From the NCBI GenBank assembly GCA_045606505.1, contig JAZUSC010000050.1, positions 35,320 to 99,319 of the forward strand: a stretch of 64,000 nt of DNA. Reading direction: 5' to 3'. The stretch comes from Oscillospiraceae bacterium (GTDB taxonomy: Bacteria > Bacillota > Clostridia > Oscillospirales > Ruminococcaceae). Made by a program: the position numbers and the translations under genes. The first letter of the stretch is position 1. Every line of letters begins with the position of its first letter. The notes beneath the pieces are model-generated. The model ran no database searches. It was given only the letters and a program-made list of their open reading frames with translations, and was not told the DNA's origin. Below are positions 34,600-58,513 of the stretch, piece by piece.

Positions 34600-35463
34600 T
34601 TAATCTGTTATACCAAAGGAAAGTCCCTTACCGTCGAAATCTACTACGGCAAACACTGTAACAGCGTCAAAGCTGTTTTCCGTCGGCTCTATAAGTGCGT
34701 GTTTGGAAAGTCCGTTGGGGTCGTCATATACCTCTTTTACAACACCCACGATAACGCCCTTAGGGAAAAGTCCGCTGCCGCCCGATGTGGCAACGATATC
34801 GCCCACCATTATGTCGGCGTCTTTAAGGATATTGCTCATAAGGCAAAGTCCATTCTGTGCACTTGTAAGGTCGTTTTCGATAACACCTGTCGCCTTAGAC
34901 CTCATAGAGAAAACACCTACGCTCATCTGAGGCGAAAGCACGGTGGTCACCCTTGAATAGTTAGGAGCTATCTCAGATACCCTGCCGATAAGTCCCACAG
35001 GGGTGATTATAGGGTCGTACAGAGAGATACCATCGTCGCTGCCCCTGTTTATCGTAAAGCCGCCGTAGATATCATTTGCATTTCTTGCAACGATATCGCA
35101 GGGGTCGGAGAATACAAAGCTTTCATTCTCCTCTTTAAGACCCAGCATTTCTCTAAGCAGCTTGTTTTCCTCTTTAAGTTCCTCGTAGTCAACGGTAGCC
35201 TTGTACATCTCGCTTAATTCCGCACGCAGCTCGTCATTCTGCTGCTTGTAGCTGTCAGCATTGACAAGCTTGTCGATAAAGCCGCCTACTCCGTCCGAGA
35301 TAGCGTTTGCCGCTGTAACAAAGGGATAAGTAACTGTATTTATTATCTGCTCGGGTACTGTTGCAAAGCCTCCCGAAACAGCCACATAAGTCAGAAGACC
35401 CAACAAGAGAGCCGCAATGCCTATGAGAATTTTAAACTTTACGCTATGAAAAAACTCTTTCAT
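34600..35463 (-). CDS. mreC: Rod shape-determining protein MreC
   Basis: N-terminal TM, coiled coil ENKLLREML, INRGSDDGI, GLIGRV, TSGGSGLFPKG. Confidence 0.93.
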   Translation of the reverse strand: MKEFFHSVKFKILIGIAALLLGLLTYVAVSGGFATVPEQIINTVTYPFVTAANAISDGVGGFIDKLVNADSYKQQNDELRAELSEMYKATVDYEELKEENKLLREMLGLKEENESFVFSDPCDIVARNANDIYGGFTINRGSDDGISLYDPIITPVGLIGRVSEIAPNYSRVTTVLSPQMSVGVFSMRSKATGVIENDLTSAQNGLCLMSNILKDADIMVGDIVATSGGSGLFPKGVIVGVVKEVYDDPNGLSKHALIEPTENSFDAVTVFAVVDFDGKGLSFGITD

Positions 35464-52061: not shown

Positions 52062-52104
52062 ACAAAATCAAATATCCCAAAGACGGCTTTATTGCCGTCT
52101 TTTT

Positions 52105-53535
52105 TTATGCCGTATCGGTCTTTTCGCCCTTTCCTGTACGCTTATTTATAAACAGCTTTACAGCATTCGTACAGCTTCGGAAGTTTATCGCAACTATAAC
52201 AAGGAAAAGTACACAGTTGACAACATTCTGTATCACTCCGTAAGGAAGGAACATCACCGACGCACCCATTACAGATATAACAGCAAGGTTCACTCCAAGG
52301 GATACAAAATTCACCTTCATATAGAGATACTTTTTAGTATCGAAATAACGGTAGATGTAAACAGCAAGATAGCTTACGAGTGTGGCGATCGCCGCACCTA
52401 TAACTCCGATAGTGTTCAGCAGCACCACATTCAGCACGATATTTACACCCGCTCCCACGCAGGAGGAGGCAAGTGTGTGGGTTGTCTTGTTACTCGCTTC
52501 GTAGATACTACCCATAAAGCTTGAACAGGACTGAAACAGTACCGCAATAAGCAGACAAGGAAGATAGAAGTATGCAAACTCAAAGCCCTCACTTCCGAGC
52601 AGCGGCATTATTATAGGTCTGAAAACCAGCAGTATTCCCGCAACAAGGAACGCCATAAGCGTCTGCATCATATTGAAAACATTACTGTAAAAGTTGGATA
52701 TGGTACGGGAGTTTCGCTCTGTTATAGCGGACATATTCCACGCCTGCATAAAAATTCCCACCACTATCGCTGCAAGGTTCGGGAATTTGTACGCAAAGGA
52801 GTAGACGCCGTTTGCATCGCTTCCATAAATAGCCGTTACCATAAATGTATCTGATACGTTTATCACCCACCACATTATCGTTGTGGGGATAAGCGGAATG
52901 CTGTAACGTATCATAGCATTGCGGAGCATCTTATCATTTCCGAAAGGACGATATTTCTGCAGAAGTTTCGCCTTTATGCAAAGGAAAATGATAGACACAG
53001 TATCTCCCAGTGATACTGACAGAACATAGCCCACTACTCCCATATTAAACACACCAAGCAGCAGCAGATTGAACAGCACTGTCGCAATGGTGGTGATAAT
53101 TCCGTCAATGGCAAAGGTCTTTACGTGTCCTCTCGCACGAACATAGATAGCACAGATATGCTTTATACTGCCCGTGCAGACATACATAAATATGAGCCAC
53201 TCATAGCCTTTCAGCATTTCGATAAAGCCTATCAGCGGAACGAACGCCGCAAATATGATAAGCCCTATCACACCCACATTTATACCTATCGAAAGCACGT
53301 GTCTGCCGTTGTTTGCCTTGTCAAGACCAAAGCGAAGCACGCCCTCGCTGATGGAGAGCGTTACCACAGATATCAACAGTGCAGATGCGTTGACGATATT
53401 TGTAACATCGCCGTAGCCGTCCGTACCGAGCATACTAGTGTAGAATTTGAGCATTACATACACAAGCAGCTTCGAGCCGAACTGACCTATCGCCAATACC
53501 AGCGTGTTGCTGGCAAGCTTCTGGTATTTATTCAT
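52105..53535 (-). CDS. Wzx-like polysaccharide flippase (MOP family)
   Basis: About 12-14 TM segments, NTLVLAIGQFGSKLL, YSIPLIP, GIYSFA-like motif, IGAAIAT. Confidence 0.85.
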   Translation of the reverse strand: MNKYQKLASNTLVLAIGQFGSKLLVYVMLKFYTSMLGTDGYGDVTNIVNASALLISVVTLSISEGVLRFGLDKANNGRHVLSIGINVGVIGLIIFAAFVPLIGFIEMLKGYEWLIFMYVCTGSIKHICAIYVRARGHVKTFAIDGIITTIATVLFNLLLLGVFNMGVVGYVLSVSLGDTVSIIFLCIKAKLLQKYRPFGNDKMLRNAMIRYSIPLIPTTIMWWVINVSDTFMVTAIYGSDANGVYSFAYKFPNLAAIVVGIFMQAWNMSAITERNSRTISNFYSNVFNMMQTLMAFLVAGILLVFRPIIMPLLGSEGFEFAYFYLPCLLIAVLFQSCSSFMGSIYEASNKTTHTLASSCVGAGVNIVLNVVLLNTIGVIGAAIATLVSYLAVYIYRYFDTKKYLYMKVNFVSLGVNLAVISVMGASVMFLPYGVIQNVVNCVLFLVIVAINFRSCTNAVKLFINKRTGKGEKTDTA

Positions 53536-53561: not shown

Positions 53562-54017
53562 TTAGTTTTCTCTCAGTTCTTTGAAAAAGCGTGTAAGTAT
53601 CTCGCCGCACTGTTCTTTCAGCACACGGCTTCGTACAAAGGGAATATGGGTGAACCGCTCTTCAAACAGATTCACCACCGAGGCACAAGCACCGTTCTTA
53701 TCATCAAAGGCACCGTATACCACCCTTTTCAGACGGGAGTTCATAATCGCTCCCGAACACATAGGACAAGGTTCAAGCGTTACATACAGTGTACAGCCGC
53801 ACAGCCGCCACTGTCCTAGACGTTTTGCCGCCTGCTCTATCGCAAGTACCTCTGCGTGGGCAATAGGAGAGCACAACATCTCACGCTGATTGTACCCCTC
53901 ACCTATTATCTCCCCCTCGGGAGATACCACCACAGCACCCACTGGGATCTCGCCCAAAGCATAAGCCTTTTCGGCGAGTTCCAGTGCTTTCAGCATATAT
54001 TCCTCGTCAAGGGTCAT
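53562..54017 (-). CDS. tadA: tRNA-specific adenosine deaminase
   Basis: GEIPVGAVVV, HAE, TLEPCPMCSGA. Confidence 0.93.
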   Translation of the reverse strand: MTLDEEYMLKALELAEKAYALGEIPVGAVVVSPEGEIIGEGYNQREMLCSPIAHAEVLAIEQAAKRLGQWRLCGCTLYVTLEPCPMCSGAIMNSRLKRVVYGAFDDKNGACASVVNLFEERFTHIPFVRSRVLKEQCGEILTRFFKELREN

Positions 54018-57000
54018 ATCTTCACTCTCTTGAATGCCTGTACTATTACAGTAAGAGCGAGCCAAGCAAGATTATACAGCGAAATATAGAAAGCGTTGAG
54101 CATATCGAAGAAATTAAAACCTGTATTGCTGTAATAGGGCGACATCGTAGAATTAGGGTCTACCCTGTCAGCAAGGTTGTAATTTCCGAAGAATGCAAAT
54201 ATCAGCACAAGCAGTATGCCCAGTGCAATTCCTGCTATCTGCATAGCACAGCCAAGCTTTATCTTCTTACACAGAGCCTTTGAACCATTTACAGCGGCAG
54301 AAAGCGAGGAGAAGCTGCCGTCACAGGATACAGCGGCACTTCCCTTGGGAACATACTTTGTACGTTCCTCAAACTCGTCGTGAGCCTCATAAGGAATGAT
54401 GTGAACGTTCTCAGCGGGTATCTCGAAGATCTCACCGATAACGCCGTCTGTGATCATACCGTCAACTGTCTTGATGACAAGGCTTACGCCATTCTTTACA
54501 AGCAGATTTACATGATGCTTTATCTGAGAGTTTGCTGTAAGGTCTACAAGGAACACCATACAAAGCTCGCCTGCAACGGCAAGATAAACCACTTCGCTGT
54601 TGTTCTTGTTTACAGCGGATACCTTTTTCATTTCAGGAACAGAGATACCGTGGGACTTCATATGGTCACGGTTGCCAAGCAGCACACGTCTGCTTCCTAT
54701 CCAGCCCATAACACCAAGGTTGCTCTCATATACGCAGTTGCTTACCTTTTTGAGCAGTGTGGATTTCAGGTTGAGCATATTAAAGAATGCCTCAGCAAGA
54801 ACGCTGTCTGTTGTTACAGCAAGACTTGCCGCATAGATGATAGCCTCGTCTATACGAACCTGCTGTGTACCTCTTGAACCATTCTTTGTGTAATCCCAGA
54901 TGCTTACCTTGATAGAGTTAGACGGGAAAAGAGATCTTGCCTCAACCAGCACCGCAGAGGTATCGTTTACCTCCTCCACAGCGGTGTAACCAAGCACCGC
55001 AGCACCCTTACCCACAAGATTTTTAGAGGCGGAGAGCATAGGCAGCATAACTGTAAGCGTACCGATAAAGGTAGCTCCTACCGCAAGTACCGCAGAAGCT
55101 GTATTTACAGCAAGTGCAACGTTATCCATAGCGTAGTTGCTTATGGACATAAAGTAGGTCATAAGTCCGCCGCCGAGAGCCGCAACAAGCACAGCAGGGG
55201 CAATAAACTTTGAAAGTCTGTCTGAGATATCCTCGCAATAGGTGGAGATGATAAAATCACAGAGAAGCTCTGTCTTACGCATAGAGGCAATTACAGGGAT
55301 ACCTGTACCTATGCCCTTTGCAAGCTTATCTGCACCCTCGTCGCTGAAACACTCCATAAAGTATTTGCTGCGGTCACCCGATACGAAGGCAAAATTACGC
55401 TGTGCAGCCTTTACCGTGCAAAGCTTAGAAACAGTGTTAAAGCAAAGACAACCGAGGGATACTATAAGATAAACGTGAACATTGTCAGTCACTAACATAG
55501 AGGGCTTTGCAAGATATGCTATCATAGCACCGATAGCACCGATATGTGCAAACGCACACAACGTATCCCCGTCGGGTCTTAGCTTGACAAGTCTTGAAAG
55601 ACCGTTTGTCACAACACTTGAACAAGCAGCAAAGCTTAAAATACCCACTACCAGATTTGTATAAAGGAAATTTTCTACGTTAAATTTATTGCAAAGACCC
55701 GAAAGGATCGGAATTCCCTCTGCATTGAGCCTGAAAACAACACTTGCCGCAATGGAAAATACCATAAGAACAACAAGTATCATCAGTCTTCCGAAAAGAC
55801 CCTTTGACGCACGTCCCAGACGGTCGATGATGACATTTTCATCGTCAAGGTCGATAACTTCTTCCTCTTCCTCGTCGAAATCGTCATCTTCCTCCTCAAC
55901 ATTGTCAAGCTCATCGTCGATATCTTCAAGCATAAAGCTGGATATCCTGCGTTTTTTACGTGCCGCAAGTTCGTCCGCCTCACGGACAGCGGCTACGGGG
56001 TCTGTTGTATGGAGAATGCTTGTATCTACAAGCTGCTTTTCATAATCGATATTCAGTGCGTGGGGTGGCAGCTGTGCAGGGTCAGAAAGGTCGGTCAGGG
56101 TAACGGTACGCTCTGCCTCCTTCTCCTTTTCACGCTGTTCTTTTAGCTTACGATTGAGTGATGCCACAAGTGCCTCATTGCTGCGACGCTGCTTTGCTGT
56201 TGCAAACTCCTTAACATCATCACCGTGGGCAGGTGCAGCAGGCTTCAATACGTTATCTATTCTGTTTTCGCTCTCACCCTTTTTACGTGAGGTAACAGGA
56301 GAATACTCCTTAACGTGCTCCTCCTCGCCACTGGAAAGACGTTTCAGGTCGTTTCCTGCAACCGCAAGTGTATCGCCCGAAACAGAGTTTTCGGCGTTCT
56401 TTACTTCCTCCGCAGCCTTTGCACGGGAGTCCATAGGATTTATGGAATCAAGCAGATCCTCGGGGGATTCTGCCGACATATCCGCTTCAAGCAAGGCACG
56501 GTTTATCTCCTCGATACGCTGCTGTTTGCGTATCTGCTGGGTAGCGGTTGTAACAAGGTCGCCCCTTGTATGGAAGATGATATCATCGTCCTCGCCCGCA
56601 ACATCGGGCTTAACATAGGGCTGTACAAATTCGCTCTCCGGCTCTACGTACTCGATATTTTTAGCCACACCAAGCTCGGCTGTTTCCGCAAACATTGCGG
56701 CAGCCTCCTCGTGGGTGGTTATCTCAGCGGTATCCGCATAACGCTGTACCGCGATCTCCTCTGCAAGTTCCTCAGCAGCCTCGTCTACCTCGGCGTCTGC
56801 TTTTGCAAGCATAGCCTCCTTTGCGGCTCTCTCCTGCTCTGCAAGGCGGCGTTTTTCCTCCTCGATAGCACGAGCCTCTTCTTCAAGACGCTTTTTCTCC
56901 GCAGCGGCAGCAGCCTTTTTTTCCTCTCTTGCACGACGCATAGCCTCCGCCTCAGCCTTTTCACGTTCCTGACGCTCTCTGCGACGCTGAGCCTCCGCCT

Positions 57001-57268
57001 GCCTTTCCTGTGCCTTTTTCTCCTTTGCAGCCTGTGCGGCAAGAGCGATCTCCTTCGCACGACGCTGTGCGGCAAGTTGTTCCTCCTGCTCTGCGGCGAG
57101 TATCTCCTCCTCTGTGCGACGAGGCTTTACACCCGAGCGACGCATAGCCTCATCAAGCTCACTGCCGCCGATTATCTCAGTTACACTGTCAGTGTGAGCA
57201 GTAGGCTTGTCGCCATCACGTCTTCGGTCTATTTCCGCTAGAATATCATCAATATTATAATCTGACAT
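54014..57268 (-). CDS. Degenerate P1B-type ATPase-like membrane protein with a long acidic/coiled-coil N-terminus
   Basis: P1B-like landmarks (DGDTL, DRLSKFIAP, AVLAVG..TL..P, LLGNR, VYLAVAG) but no DKTGT, CPC, TGES or GDGxND. Confidence 0.65.
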   Translation of the reverse strand: MSDYNIDDILAEIDRRRDGDKPTAHTDSVTEIIGGSELDEAMRRSGVKPRRTEEEILAAEQEEQLAAQRRAKEIALAAQAAKEKKAQERQAEAQRRRERQEREKAEAEAMRRAREEKKAAAAAEKKRLEEEARAIEEEKRRLAEQERAAKEAMLAKADAEVDEAAEELAEEIAVQRYADTAEITTHEEAAAMFAETAELGVAKNIEYVEPESEFVQPYVKPDVAGEDDDIIFHTRGDLVTTATQQIRKQQRIEEINRALLEADMSAESPEDLLDSINPMDSRAKAAEEVKNAENSVSGDTLAVAGNDLKRLSSGEEEHVKEYSPVTSRKKGESENRIDNVLKPAAPAHGDDVKEFATAKQRRSNEALVASLNRKLKEQREKEKEAERTVTLTDLSDPAQLPPHALNIDYEKQLVDTSILHTTDPVAAVREADELAARKKRRISSFMLEDIDDELDNVEEEDDDFDEEEEEVIDLDDENVIIDRLGRASKGLFGRLMILVVLMVFSIAASVVFRLNAEGIPILSGLCNKFNVENFLYTNLVVGILSFAACSSVVTNGLSRLVKLRPDGDTLCAFAHIGAIGAMIAYLAKPSMLVTDNVHVYLIVSLGCLCFNTVSKLCTVKAAQRNFAFVSGDRSKYFMECFSDEGADKLAKGIGTGIPVIASMRKTELLCDFIISTYCEDISDRLSKFIAPAVLVAALGGGLMTYFMSISNYAMDNVALAVNTASAVLAVGATFIGTLTVMLPMLSASKNLVGKGAAVLGYTAVEEVNDTSAVLVEARSLFPSNSIKVSIWDYTKNGSRGTQQVRIDEAIIYAASLAVTTDSVLAEAFFNMLNLKSTLLKKVSNCVYESNLGVMGWIGSRRVLLGNRDHMKSHGISVPEMKKVSAVNKNNSEVVYLAVAGELCMVFLVDLTANSQIKHHVNLLVKNGVSLVIKTVDGMITDGVIGEIFEIPAENVHIIPYEAHDEFEERTKYVPKGSAAVSCDGSFSSLSAAVNGSKALCKKIKLGCAMQIAGIALGILLVLIFAFFGNYNLADRVDPNSTMSPYYSNTGFNFFDMLNAFYISLYNLAWLALTVIVQAFKRVKI

Positions 57269-57295: not shown

Positions 57296-58027
57296 TTAAC
57301 GGTGCTTTACAACTTCATACATAAGTATTCCCGCCGATACCGAGGCATTTAGCGAGTTTATCTTGCCATACATTGGCAAAGAAAGTATCATATCACAGTT
57401 TTCACGAACAAGTCTGCCAAGCCCGAAACCCTCAGAGCCTATCACAAGTGCAATGCCGCCTGTAAGATCAGCCTTGTCGTAGGGAGTGCCGTCTGCCTCT
57501 GCACCGAACACCCATATATTCTCTTTTTTAAGCTGCTTTATAGTATCAACAAGGTTAGGAACTCTTGCAACTTTGAGCCACGCAGCCGCTCCCGCCGATG
57601 TTTTGAACACCGTAGCATTAAGAGATGCACTTCTGCGTTTCGGGATTATCACTCCGTCTGCACCGGCAGCCTCTGCTGTACGGATTATTGCACCGAGATT
57701 GTGAGGGTCTTCTATCTCATCGGCTATGATGATAAAAGGCGGTTTGCCCTTTTCCTTTGATACGGCAAGTATCTCCTCCACCGTTGCGTATGACGCAGCA
57801 GCAAGGTATGCCGCTGTGCCGCCATGCTTTGAAGTGCCTGTCATAGCGGTGAGCTTTTCATCGCTTACCTCCTTGATGACAACGCCCTTCTGCTTTGCAA
57901 GGGGAATTATCTTTCCGAGAGATATGCCCTTCTGGACATATAATGTATCAAGCTCCGCGTCCGAGGTAAGAGCCTCCGTAACAGAATTTTTTCCGTATAT
58001 AATCTTAACTTCTGTCTTGTTATCCAT
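57296..58027 (-). CDS. rlmB: 23S rRNA Gm2251 methyltransferase (TrmH/SpoU family)
   Basis: YGKNSV, EDPHNLGAIIRTA, KTSAGA, IGSEG, SLNASVSAG. Confidence 0.92.
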   Translation of the reverse strand: MDNKTEVKIIYGKNSVTEALTSDAELDTLYVQKGISLGKIIPLAKQKGVVIKEVSDEKLTAMTGTSKHGGTAAYLAAASYATVEEILAVSKEKGKPPFIIIADEIEDPHNLGAIIRTAEAAGADGVIIPKRRSASLNATVFKTSAGAAAWLKVARVPNLVDTIKQLKKENIWVFGAEADGTPYDKADLTGGIALVIGSEGFGLGRLVRENCDMILSLPMYGKINSLNASVSAGILMYEVVKHR

Positions 58028-58210: not shown

Positions 58211-58456
58211 TTGGGAATTACATTCGGCAAAAAACACGGCTCCGAGGACAATACTAATACCACACTCGCACGGGAATACATACAGCTCACCGAAAGACTG
58301 AATGAGATACGTACGAATTTCGACTTTGTAACCGATGAGGCGGCTGTTGACGCACTTATCTACGAGGAGAATGCAGTCCTTGCAAAACTGTCTGCTCTAT
58401 ACAAGGAAGCAAAGGCTTCGGGTAGCCGTTTGGAGATATACGAACTGAAAAAATAA
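58211..58456 (+). CDS. YaaL/DUF2508-like small protein
   Basis: RBS AAGGAGG before TTG; NFDFVTD...DALIYE..A....L.KEAK pattern. Confidence 0.65.
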   Translation: MGITFGKKHGSEDNTNTTLAREYIQLTERLNEIRTNFDFVTDEAAVDALIYEENAVLAKLSALYKEAKASGSRLEIYELKK

Positions 58457-58484: not shown

Positions 58485-58513
58485 TTGACAAATCTATTTT
58501 GCTGTGGTATAAT
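58485..58513 (+). promoter_or_regulatory. sigma-A promoter of tRNA-Leu
   Basis: TTGACA-17 bp-TATAAT with extended TG and an AT-rich UP element. Confidence 0.85.

Follow-up and report, generated by a model that had tools for sequence, protein, structure and literature searches.

The 64,000-nucleotide stretch of contig JAZUSC010000050.1 analysed here (positions 35,320 to 99,319 of an Oscillospiraceae bacterium contig in assembly GCA_045606505.1; hereafter, ‘the window’) contains an open reading frame (ORF) at positions 54014-57268 of the minus strand that encodes a protein of 1084 amino acids (aa), followed by a stop codon. This protein, called X throughout, is with high confidence a non-catalytic, repurposed ATPase module of the P1B (heavy-metal) type that carries a long N-terminal extension. 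The reading we prefer, to which we assign a probability of roughly 0.6, is that X is a dead P1B (CopA-type) relic acting as a tethered-peptide membrane scaffold or sensor and not as a transporter: the fold has been kept, the machinery has been lost, selection is strong, and the gene is near-universal in its order, which argues for a job other than pumping. For the narrower claim that a scaffold or sensor with a peptide-recruited partner is how X actually works, we put the odds slightly below even. The original prediction, made from the sequence of the window, had described an intact ORF encoding a repurposed P1B-ATPase scaffold without catalytic motifs. The ORF is confirmed (ATG at 57268, with the ribosome-binding site AGGAG 8 nt before it; ratios of nonsynonymous to synonymous substitution rates [dN/dS] of 0.02-0.21 among orthologs), and homology, fold, and selection support the scaffold.

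Sequence, profile, and structure comparison all show the last ~595 residues of X to be homologous to P1B heavy-metal ATPases, and sequence and profile searches with X returned no match outside this group. A phmmer search of the PDB sequences recovered only copper pumps, the best being Legionella CopA (3rfu; E 4.9e-5), residues 335-603 of which align with residues 681-960 of X; a profile of close orthologs recovered the same targets. A family hidden Markov model (HMM) of 139 diverse members (the ‘representatives’ below) was tested against a canonical CopA of another Clostridia order (L107, with TGES, CPC, DKTGT, SEHP, and GDGIND) and matched it in two blocks. The first extends from helix MA to M2 and places PDGDTL of X on PNMDTL of the pump (E 2.4e-19); the second comprises the end of the actuator (A) domain, M3, M4, and the phosphorylation (P) and nucleotide-binding (N) domains (E 4.7e-34). 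A P1B order of motifs had been predicted for the C-terminal ~600 aa, and alignment with CopA reproduces every proposed equivalence: PDGDTL corresponds to PNMDTL (MB'/M1), DRLSKFIAPAV to (l)aDkiSgyFVP, LLGNR to iGN..lM, VYLAVAG to the corresponding N/P-domain strand, KTVDG to TGD, and IIPYE to LPxxK.

Hydropathy reveals eight helices in the P1B arrangement (4 + 2 + 2), with which the secondary structure predicted by AlphaFold2 (AF2) agrees: MA, MB, and a core of six helices, in which the P/N insert separates M4 from M5. The AF2 model of the C-terminal 595 residues, computed with 48 orthologs, has a mean predicted local distance difference test score (pLDDT) of 80.3 and a predicted template modelling (TM) score (pTM) of 0.74. 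When this model was compared with PDB structures using Foldseek, all top 50 matches were P-type ATPases, the first 13 being P1B pumps (CopA 4bbj, 3rfu, and 7r0g, ATP7B, ZntA, HMA4, and CadA), followed by KdpB. The best match is 4bbj (E 2e-16, probability 1.00); the TM-scores of 0.47-0.56 are as expected because a multi-domain protein is compared across conformational states. A P-type fold is present in the predicted structure, and its best matches are P1B pumps.

Along the chain (all features of X lie on the minus strand), residues 490-619 (55412-55801) form MA, MB, M1, and M2, including PDGDTL, as indicated by hydropathy, AF2 helices, and the first HMM block. They are followed by an actuator-domain stub of two beta strands and short helices (residues 620-684; 55217-55411), delimited by an HMM gap and secondary structure, and by M3 and M4 (residues 685-747; 55028-55216), placed by alignment. 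The equivalents of the P- and N-domains (residues 748-1000; 54269-55027), identified with the HMM, AF2, and Foldseek, are strongly conserved; family-specific invariant residues there are E848, G852, R861, G865, P878, Y895, and D936, and the new invariant polar residues recorded for the N-domain, the most conserved part of the protein, are E848, R861, R867, and H873. Hydropathy and AF2 place M5 and M6, with a disordered loop between them, in residues 1001-1084 (54017-54268).

Within this conserved fold, the catalytic motifs have been lost. The degenerate DKTGT site is VLVEARSLFP (residues 773-782; 54923-54952), in which VLVEARSLF aligns with (v)vDKTGTL of CopA, so that EARSL stands at DKTGT and Glu776 replaces the phosphorylated Asp. 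Among the 139 representatives, this column contains D in 74 (53%), N in 15, S in 14, E in 13, T in 6, and R in 6; an acidic residue is found in 87 of 139 and in 46 of 48 close relatives, and in the clade of X itself Glu (34/48) outnumbers Asp (12/48). The Lys column of DKTGT has become Ala in 99 of 139, and a new family motif, x-A-x-x-L-F-P, occupies the site (L in 129, F in 133, and P in 120 of 139). DK[TS]GT occurs in 0 of the 149 best representatives, and no intermediate keeping DKTGT or TGES was found among 149 representatives and 20 divergent orthologs, the divergent members being more degenerate still. Because Ser, Arg, Lys, or Thr stands at the phosphorylation site in the orthologs that belong to other families of the order, the degenerate state is, as far as the aligned sequences indicate, ancestral for the family.

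The remaining signatures have fared similarly. At the place of CPC in M4, X has GATF (residues 731-734; A-T-F at the three CPC positions), about half of the family has [SA]-P-F, and Cys is mostly gone, with P743 in M4 surviving across the family. The absence of the phosphorylated Asp and of CPC had thus been called correctly. The Glu and His positions of SEHP align to Ser in X (S815 and S822), the lysine column of PxxK (HAD motif III) holds L, M, or A, and X has no HMA metal-binding domain. GDGxND, which had been reported missing, is indeed degenerate, but ‘missing’ was an overstatement: Asp-Gly survives in X (CDGSFS), and family-wide only the middle Gly is kept (128/139). Likewise, the actuator domain was said to be absent together with TGES; TGES is gone, but a beta-hairpin stub of ~65 residues remains (~65 HMM positions vs ~130 CopA residues). 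What is retained is the TGD equivalent (HAD motif II), located by alignment at T934-V935-D936 (54461-54469), whose column has [TS] in 126 and Asp in 136 of 139 members, and the GxG and GN glycines of the N-domain, with G852 and G865 invariant.

The family is not covered by any Pfam or NCBIfam model. These libraries yielded zero matches to X at E <= 1, including when the N-terminal 489 aa were scanned; PF00122 (E1-E2_ATPase) and PF00702 did not recognise X at that threshold, and PF00122 matched five other genes of the same genome. Among 31 diverse family members, Pfam gave marginal matches at E ~0.003 (HAD in 2/31, E1-E2 in 1/31). Public databases label X-type proteins ‘hypothetical protein’, and searches of the literature returned no account of such a family. 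The family is a new, catalytically dead variant of the P-type ATPase fold; the fold itself is known. The genome has five ordinary P-type ATPases, among them two P1B pumps with CPC, DKTGT, TGES, and GDGxND, and metal efflux is therefore covered elsewhere. These five (L011-L015) are located on contigs C17, C26, C40, C4, and C25 of genome G000. In one of them (L015), the actuator model E1-E2 scores above its cut-off, but a pattern search of the longest ORF gave no DKTGT, TGES, or GDGxND; this protein may be another divergent P-type case.

The family is nearly universal within its lineage. Full-length matches with an open frame occur in 196 of 201 sampled genomes of the taxonomic family (161 of the 163 high-quality ones), and at E <= 1e-40 the protein is present in 271 of 301 genomes of the order (233/257 high-quality); each of the 30 families has at least one match. 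In ~290 genomes of other orders of the class it was not found: the profile there matches only proteins of the canonical-pump type (~740-880 aa, E 1e-16 to 1e-27, matched in the two blocks that characterise such pumps), separated by a clear gap from the weakest true member (E 1e-51). An exhaustive search of representatives yielded 718 clusters (50% identity, E <= 1e-30), all with the module at the C-terminal end. The record titles of 80 related loci name Oscillospiraceae, Ruminococcaceae, Ruminococcus, or ‘Clostridia’ metagenome-assembled genomes from guts and rumen, and we take the order to be the one to which GTDB assigns these families. The Nei-Gojobori method, applied to 16 close ortholog pairs, gives dN/dS values of 0.02-0.10 in the module and 0.03-0.21 in the N-terminal part. 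In one Clostridia order, selection on X is as strong as on a core gene.

The arm preceding the module has no globular domain before residue ~477 in the full-length AF2 model (pLDDT 70.2). Its predicted components (an amphipathic start, an E/A/R/K helix, and an acidic tract) are borne out by composition and AF2. At the extreme N-terminus is a short linear motif (residues 4-17, YNIDDILAEIDRRR; 57218-57259), recognised from motif counts and AF2 as an acidic amphipathic helix followed by a basic cluster; helix 6-17 is predicted with low pLDDT. Its consensus is [FY]-[SN]-[VIL]-D-D-I-L-x-E-[IY], then basic residues. It occurs within the first 45 residues of 119 of 139 representatives, vs 0.25% of shuffled N-termini, often with a second copy ~30 residues further on. 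Variants in other families of the order include FSLEEILDE and FSLDDIMREY, and some lineages have diverged.

The spacer between peptide and membrane ranges from ~110 to ~1080 aa across representatives. In X, it includes an E/R/K/A-rich stretch modelled as one unbroken 105-residue helix (residues 53-157; 56798-57112; AF2 pLDDT 75-85, in keeping with composition), which is variable or absent in other members. Since it has few hydrophobic residues, this predicted helix would resemble a single-alpha-helix spacer more than a coiled coil. Further on, alignments and AF2 define a conserved, non-globular helical segment with near-invariant columns (residues 242-294, TQQIRKQQRIEEINRALLEAD...NPMDSRAKA; 56387-56545), and AF2 shows other isolated conserved helices at residues 362-385 and 425-447. 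A poly-acidic tract (residues 446-476; 55841-55933), identified by composition and AF2 disorder, lies ahead of the first membrane helix; Asp and Glu make up 51% of residues 450-490.

A mechanism consistent with these features can be outlined. X descends from a P1B (CopA-type) ATPase and has very probably given up both pumping and aspartyl-phosphate formation. The dead pump module would serve as a membrane anchor, possibly with a P/N ‘clam’ that binds a ligand or partner and to which the N and P domains would contribute [TS]-x-D, the GxG and GN glycines, and the new invariant residues E848, R861, R867, and H873. The N-terminal peptide, on its flexible or stiff spacer, may then recruit or regulate a cytoplasmic partner at the membrane. 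Among the functions originally suggested, we prefer membrane scaffold and sensor as the candidate roles.

Several observations weigh against the tethered-peptide scaffold or sensor. The N-terminal motif is on no other protein of the genome, and with the peptide confined to X, no binding hub can be inferred; the full-length AF2 model docks the peptide nowhere with confidence (pLDDT ~50). The membrane domain may have a passive transport or channel role. Finally, because about half of the family keeps Asp at the old phosphorylation position and almost all members have [TS]-x-D, some members may have residual Mg2+/phosphate or nucleotide chemistry.

A bolder, and in our judgement unlikely, extension is that X is the first known representative of a class of bacterial pseudo-P-type ATPases. 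It would then be a membrane receptor or scaffold that defines the order, its dead pump module sensing a membrane or cytoplasmic cue and its tethered acidic peptide controlling an essential housekeeping process. In the Oscillospiraceae/Ruminococcaceae lineage, such a process could be, for example, rlmB-linked ribosome maturation or the growth and division of the envelope.

The genomic neighbourhood bears on the first alternative, namely that X serves another membrane machine as a regulatory or structural subunit, much as KdpB does KdpA, its dead module contacting a candidate partner inside the membrane: a MOP flippase or the division ABC system FtsEX. Directly upstream of X is its order-wide neighbour, a gene for an rlmB-type SpoU rRNA 2'-O-methyltransferase (57296-58027, minus strand), the stop codon of which is 27 nt from the ATG of X. 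Downstream on the same strand are genes for a tadA-type tRNA adenosine deaminase (53562-54017), whose ATG shares bases with the TGA of X in the predicted ATGA overlap, and a MOP-family (Polysacc_synt/MurJ-like) flippase (52105-53535), the last gene of the apparent operon. From sequence, the operon probably ends at a GC-rich hairpin (52079-52102) that has a T-run and lies immediately beyond the stop codon of the flippase gene. The predicted order rlmB-X-tadA-flippase is real in the window and in close loci: among 78 loci at 39-76% identity, tadA accompanies X in 77, the flippase in 75, and an adjacent, co-oriented rlmB in 72, missing neighbours being mostly due to contig ends. In 20 divergent genomes, rlmB is directly upstream, co-oriented, and often abutting or overlapping in 21 of 21 loci, and we infer co-transcription of rlmB and X; tadA and the flippase are not next to X there, both being limited to closer genera.

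The conserved X-tadA-flippase order (75/78) favours such a subunit, as do the conserved polar residues at the membrane-cytoplasm interface (N611, K615, R621, and N625) and the presence of FtsE/FtsX a few genes downstream in 5-7 of the 20 divergent loci, where gene names are our own reading of the sequences and not profile matches. However, neither flippase nor FtsEX is adjacent to X order-wide; only rlmB is. We consider the subunit reading improbable. The earlier suggestion of a flippase partner is weakened for the same reason: flippase and tadA follow X in closer genera only, and rlmB alone is its neighbour across the order.

A second alternative, which overlaps with the scaffold or sensor that we prefer, is a pseudo-ATPase switch, in which the P/N domains would close on nucleotide or Mg2+/phosphate without hydrolysis and relay this movement to the arm. 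It draws on the retained GxG/GN glycines and [TS]-x-D (G852 and G865 invariant; D936 in 136/139), the acidic residue at the phosphorylation site in 87 of 139 representatives and 46 of 48 close relatives, and the N-domain as the best-conserved part of the protein. Against it, the adenine-binding His and Glu of SEHP align to Ser, and the phosphorylation-site column also admits N, S, T, R, and K. We give this switch a low probability. That X is an active, highly divergent pump for a new substrate, using Glu776/Asp and a non-canonical site, is very unlikely. The whole fold is conserved, selection is strong, and about half of the family keeps Asp, but the nucleophile column is unconserved, TGES, GDGxND, the Lys of motif III, and the K/T/G/T of DKTGT have not survived, the actuator needed for dephosphorylation is a stub, and the family alignment of M4-M6 retains no conserved polar or Cys/His/Met site. 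A decaying pseudogene or low-complexity annotation artefact, which missing motifs and the ability of E/K-rich composition to create antisense ORFs might suggest, is ruled out by a reading frame that stays open across hundreds of genomes at identities as low as 22%, dN/dS of 0.02-0.10, distribution across family (196/201) and order (271/301), a ribosome-binding site, and translational coupling to tadA, as the original prediction had anticipated.

Among known systems, P1B ATPases (CopA, ZntA, and ATP7B) share with X the eight-helix plan (MA-MB-M1..M6), the PNMDTL-type motif (PDGDTL in X), the succession of M3/M4 and then P-N-P domains, TGD (T-x-D in X), and the GxG/GN glycines. In contrast to these pumps, X lacks DKTGT, CPC, SEHP, the PxxK lysine, GDGxND, and TGES, its actuator is cut to a stub, and in place of an HMA domain it has a non-globular arm of 100-1100 aa with a conserved N-terminal peptide. 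Moreover, its gene is located among housekeeping genes, unlike the P1B pump genes of metal operons; no metal-homeostasis genes were found near X in the window or at the divergent loci. KdpB, a P1A ATPase of KdpFABC and the second-best structural class in the Foldseek comparison, resembles X as a small P-type module serving another membrane protein without being the main conduit. However, KdpB is catalytically complete (DKTGT and TGES) and encoded with KdpA and KdpC, whereas X lacks these motifs and has no comparable partners in its vicinity.

Apicomplexan guanylyl cyclases GC-alpha and GC-beta contain a fused P4-ATPase-like module, and in GC-alpha the catalytic Asp of this domain is present and required (PMC7858053). 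These cyclases are the nearest conceptual precedent for X, i.e. a P-type module recruited into a signalling or regulatory protein, but they are eukaryotic proteins of the P4 type with an enzyme as fusion partner; X is a bacterial protein, derives from P1B pumps, and has a disordered arm in that place. The P4-ATPase-like domain of GC-beta is the more degenerate. For the arm, a general analogy is the tethered-peptide design of the bacterial division proteins FtsZ (C-terminal linker and peptide) and ZipA (charged/PQ linker), in which a conserved short peptide is carried on a long, variable, low-complexity spacer; unlike these, X has no sequence relation to either protein, and its peptide is N-terminal and acidic.

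Few membrane enzymes have been studied as thoroughly as the P-type ATPases, and the phospho-Asp cycle is commonly regarded as their defining property. Here, a large family has kept the whole P-type fold for the lifetime of a bacterial order and dispensed with phosphorylation site, metal site, and actuator, a natural experiment on the uses of the P-type scaffold without catalysis. Anaerobes of this gut and rumen lineage thus have one more membrane protein that is near-universal and uncharacterised. With a family model, thousands of genomes could be annotated and mis-transferred ‘copper ATPase’ labels prevented, and the conserved N-terminal peptide could be used as bait for finding partners.

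Some minor observations concern the same loci. The start of tadA is most likely the ATG at 54017, and the TTG at 54065 in the mechanical ORF list (53562-54065, minus strand) is probably wrong. Opposite the E/K/A-rich part of X is an antisense ORF of 308 aa (56315-57241, plus strand), and long antisense ORFs likewise occur in loci L112, L115, L121, L122, L125, and L127 (cluster c4). These are probably composition artefacts rather than genes, recurring in relatives because the low-complexity coding strand of X is conserved. Between rlmB and an HD-GYP gene, an 81-aa ORF (58211-58456, plus strand) has a weak, sub-threshold match to DUF2508 (E 4e-4; 20.9 bits vs a cut-off of 22.5). A perfect promoter-like site (TTGACA-17-TATAAT; 58485-58513) is on the same strand as this ORF, which our analysis placed downstream of it.

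Five divergent loci (L112, L113, L125, L126, and L127) have, downstream of X, genes that we read from their sequences as an EF-G paralog, a small membrane protein, and an RsuA-type pseudouridine synthase and, further on, a regulator resembling CdaR/PucR, an FtsE whose tail is long and acidic, and FtsX. One ortholog (G520:C38:4497-6554) has a single in-frame TGA in an otherwise full-length match (E 2e-207), which could represent a sequencing error, a recent pseudogene, or recoding. Finally, a record titled ‘Escherichia coli isolate ... cleanbin’ (L050; CAVIFG010000049.1) contains an Oscillospiraceae-type X-tadA-flippase-HTH-phosphatase cluster and is most likely a mislabelled or contaminated bin.

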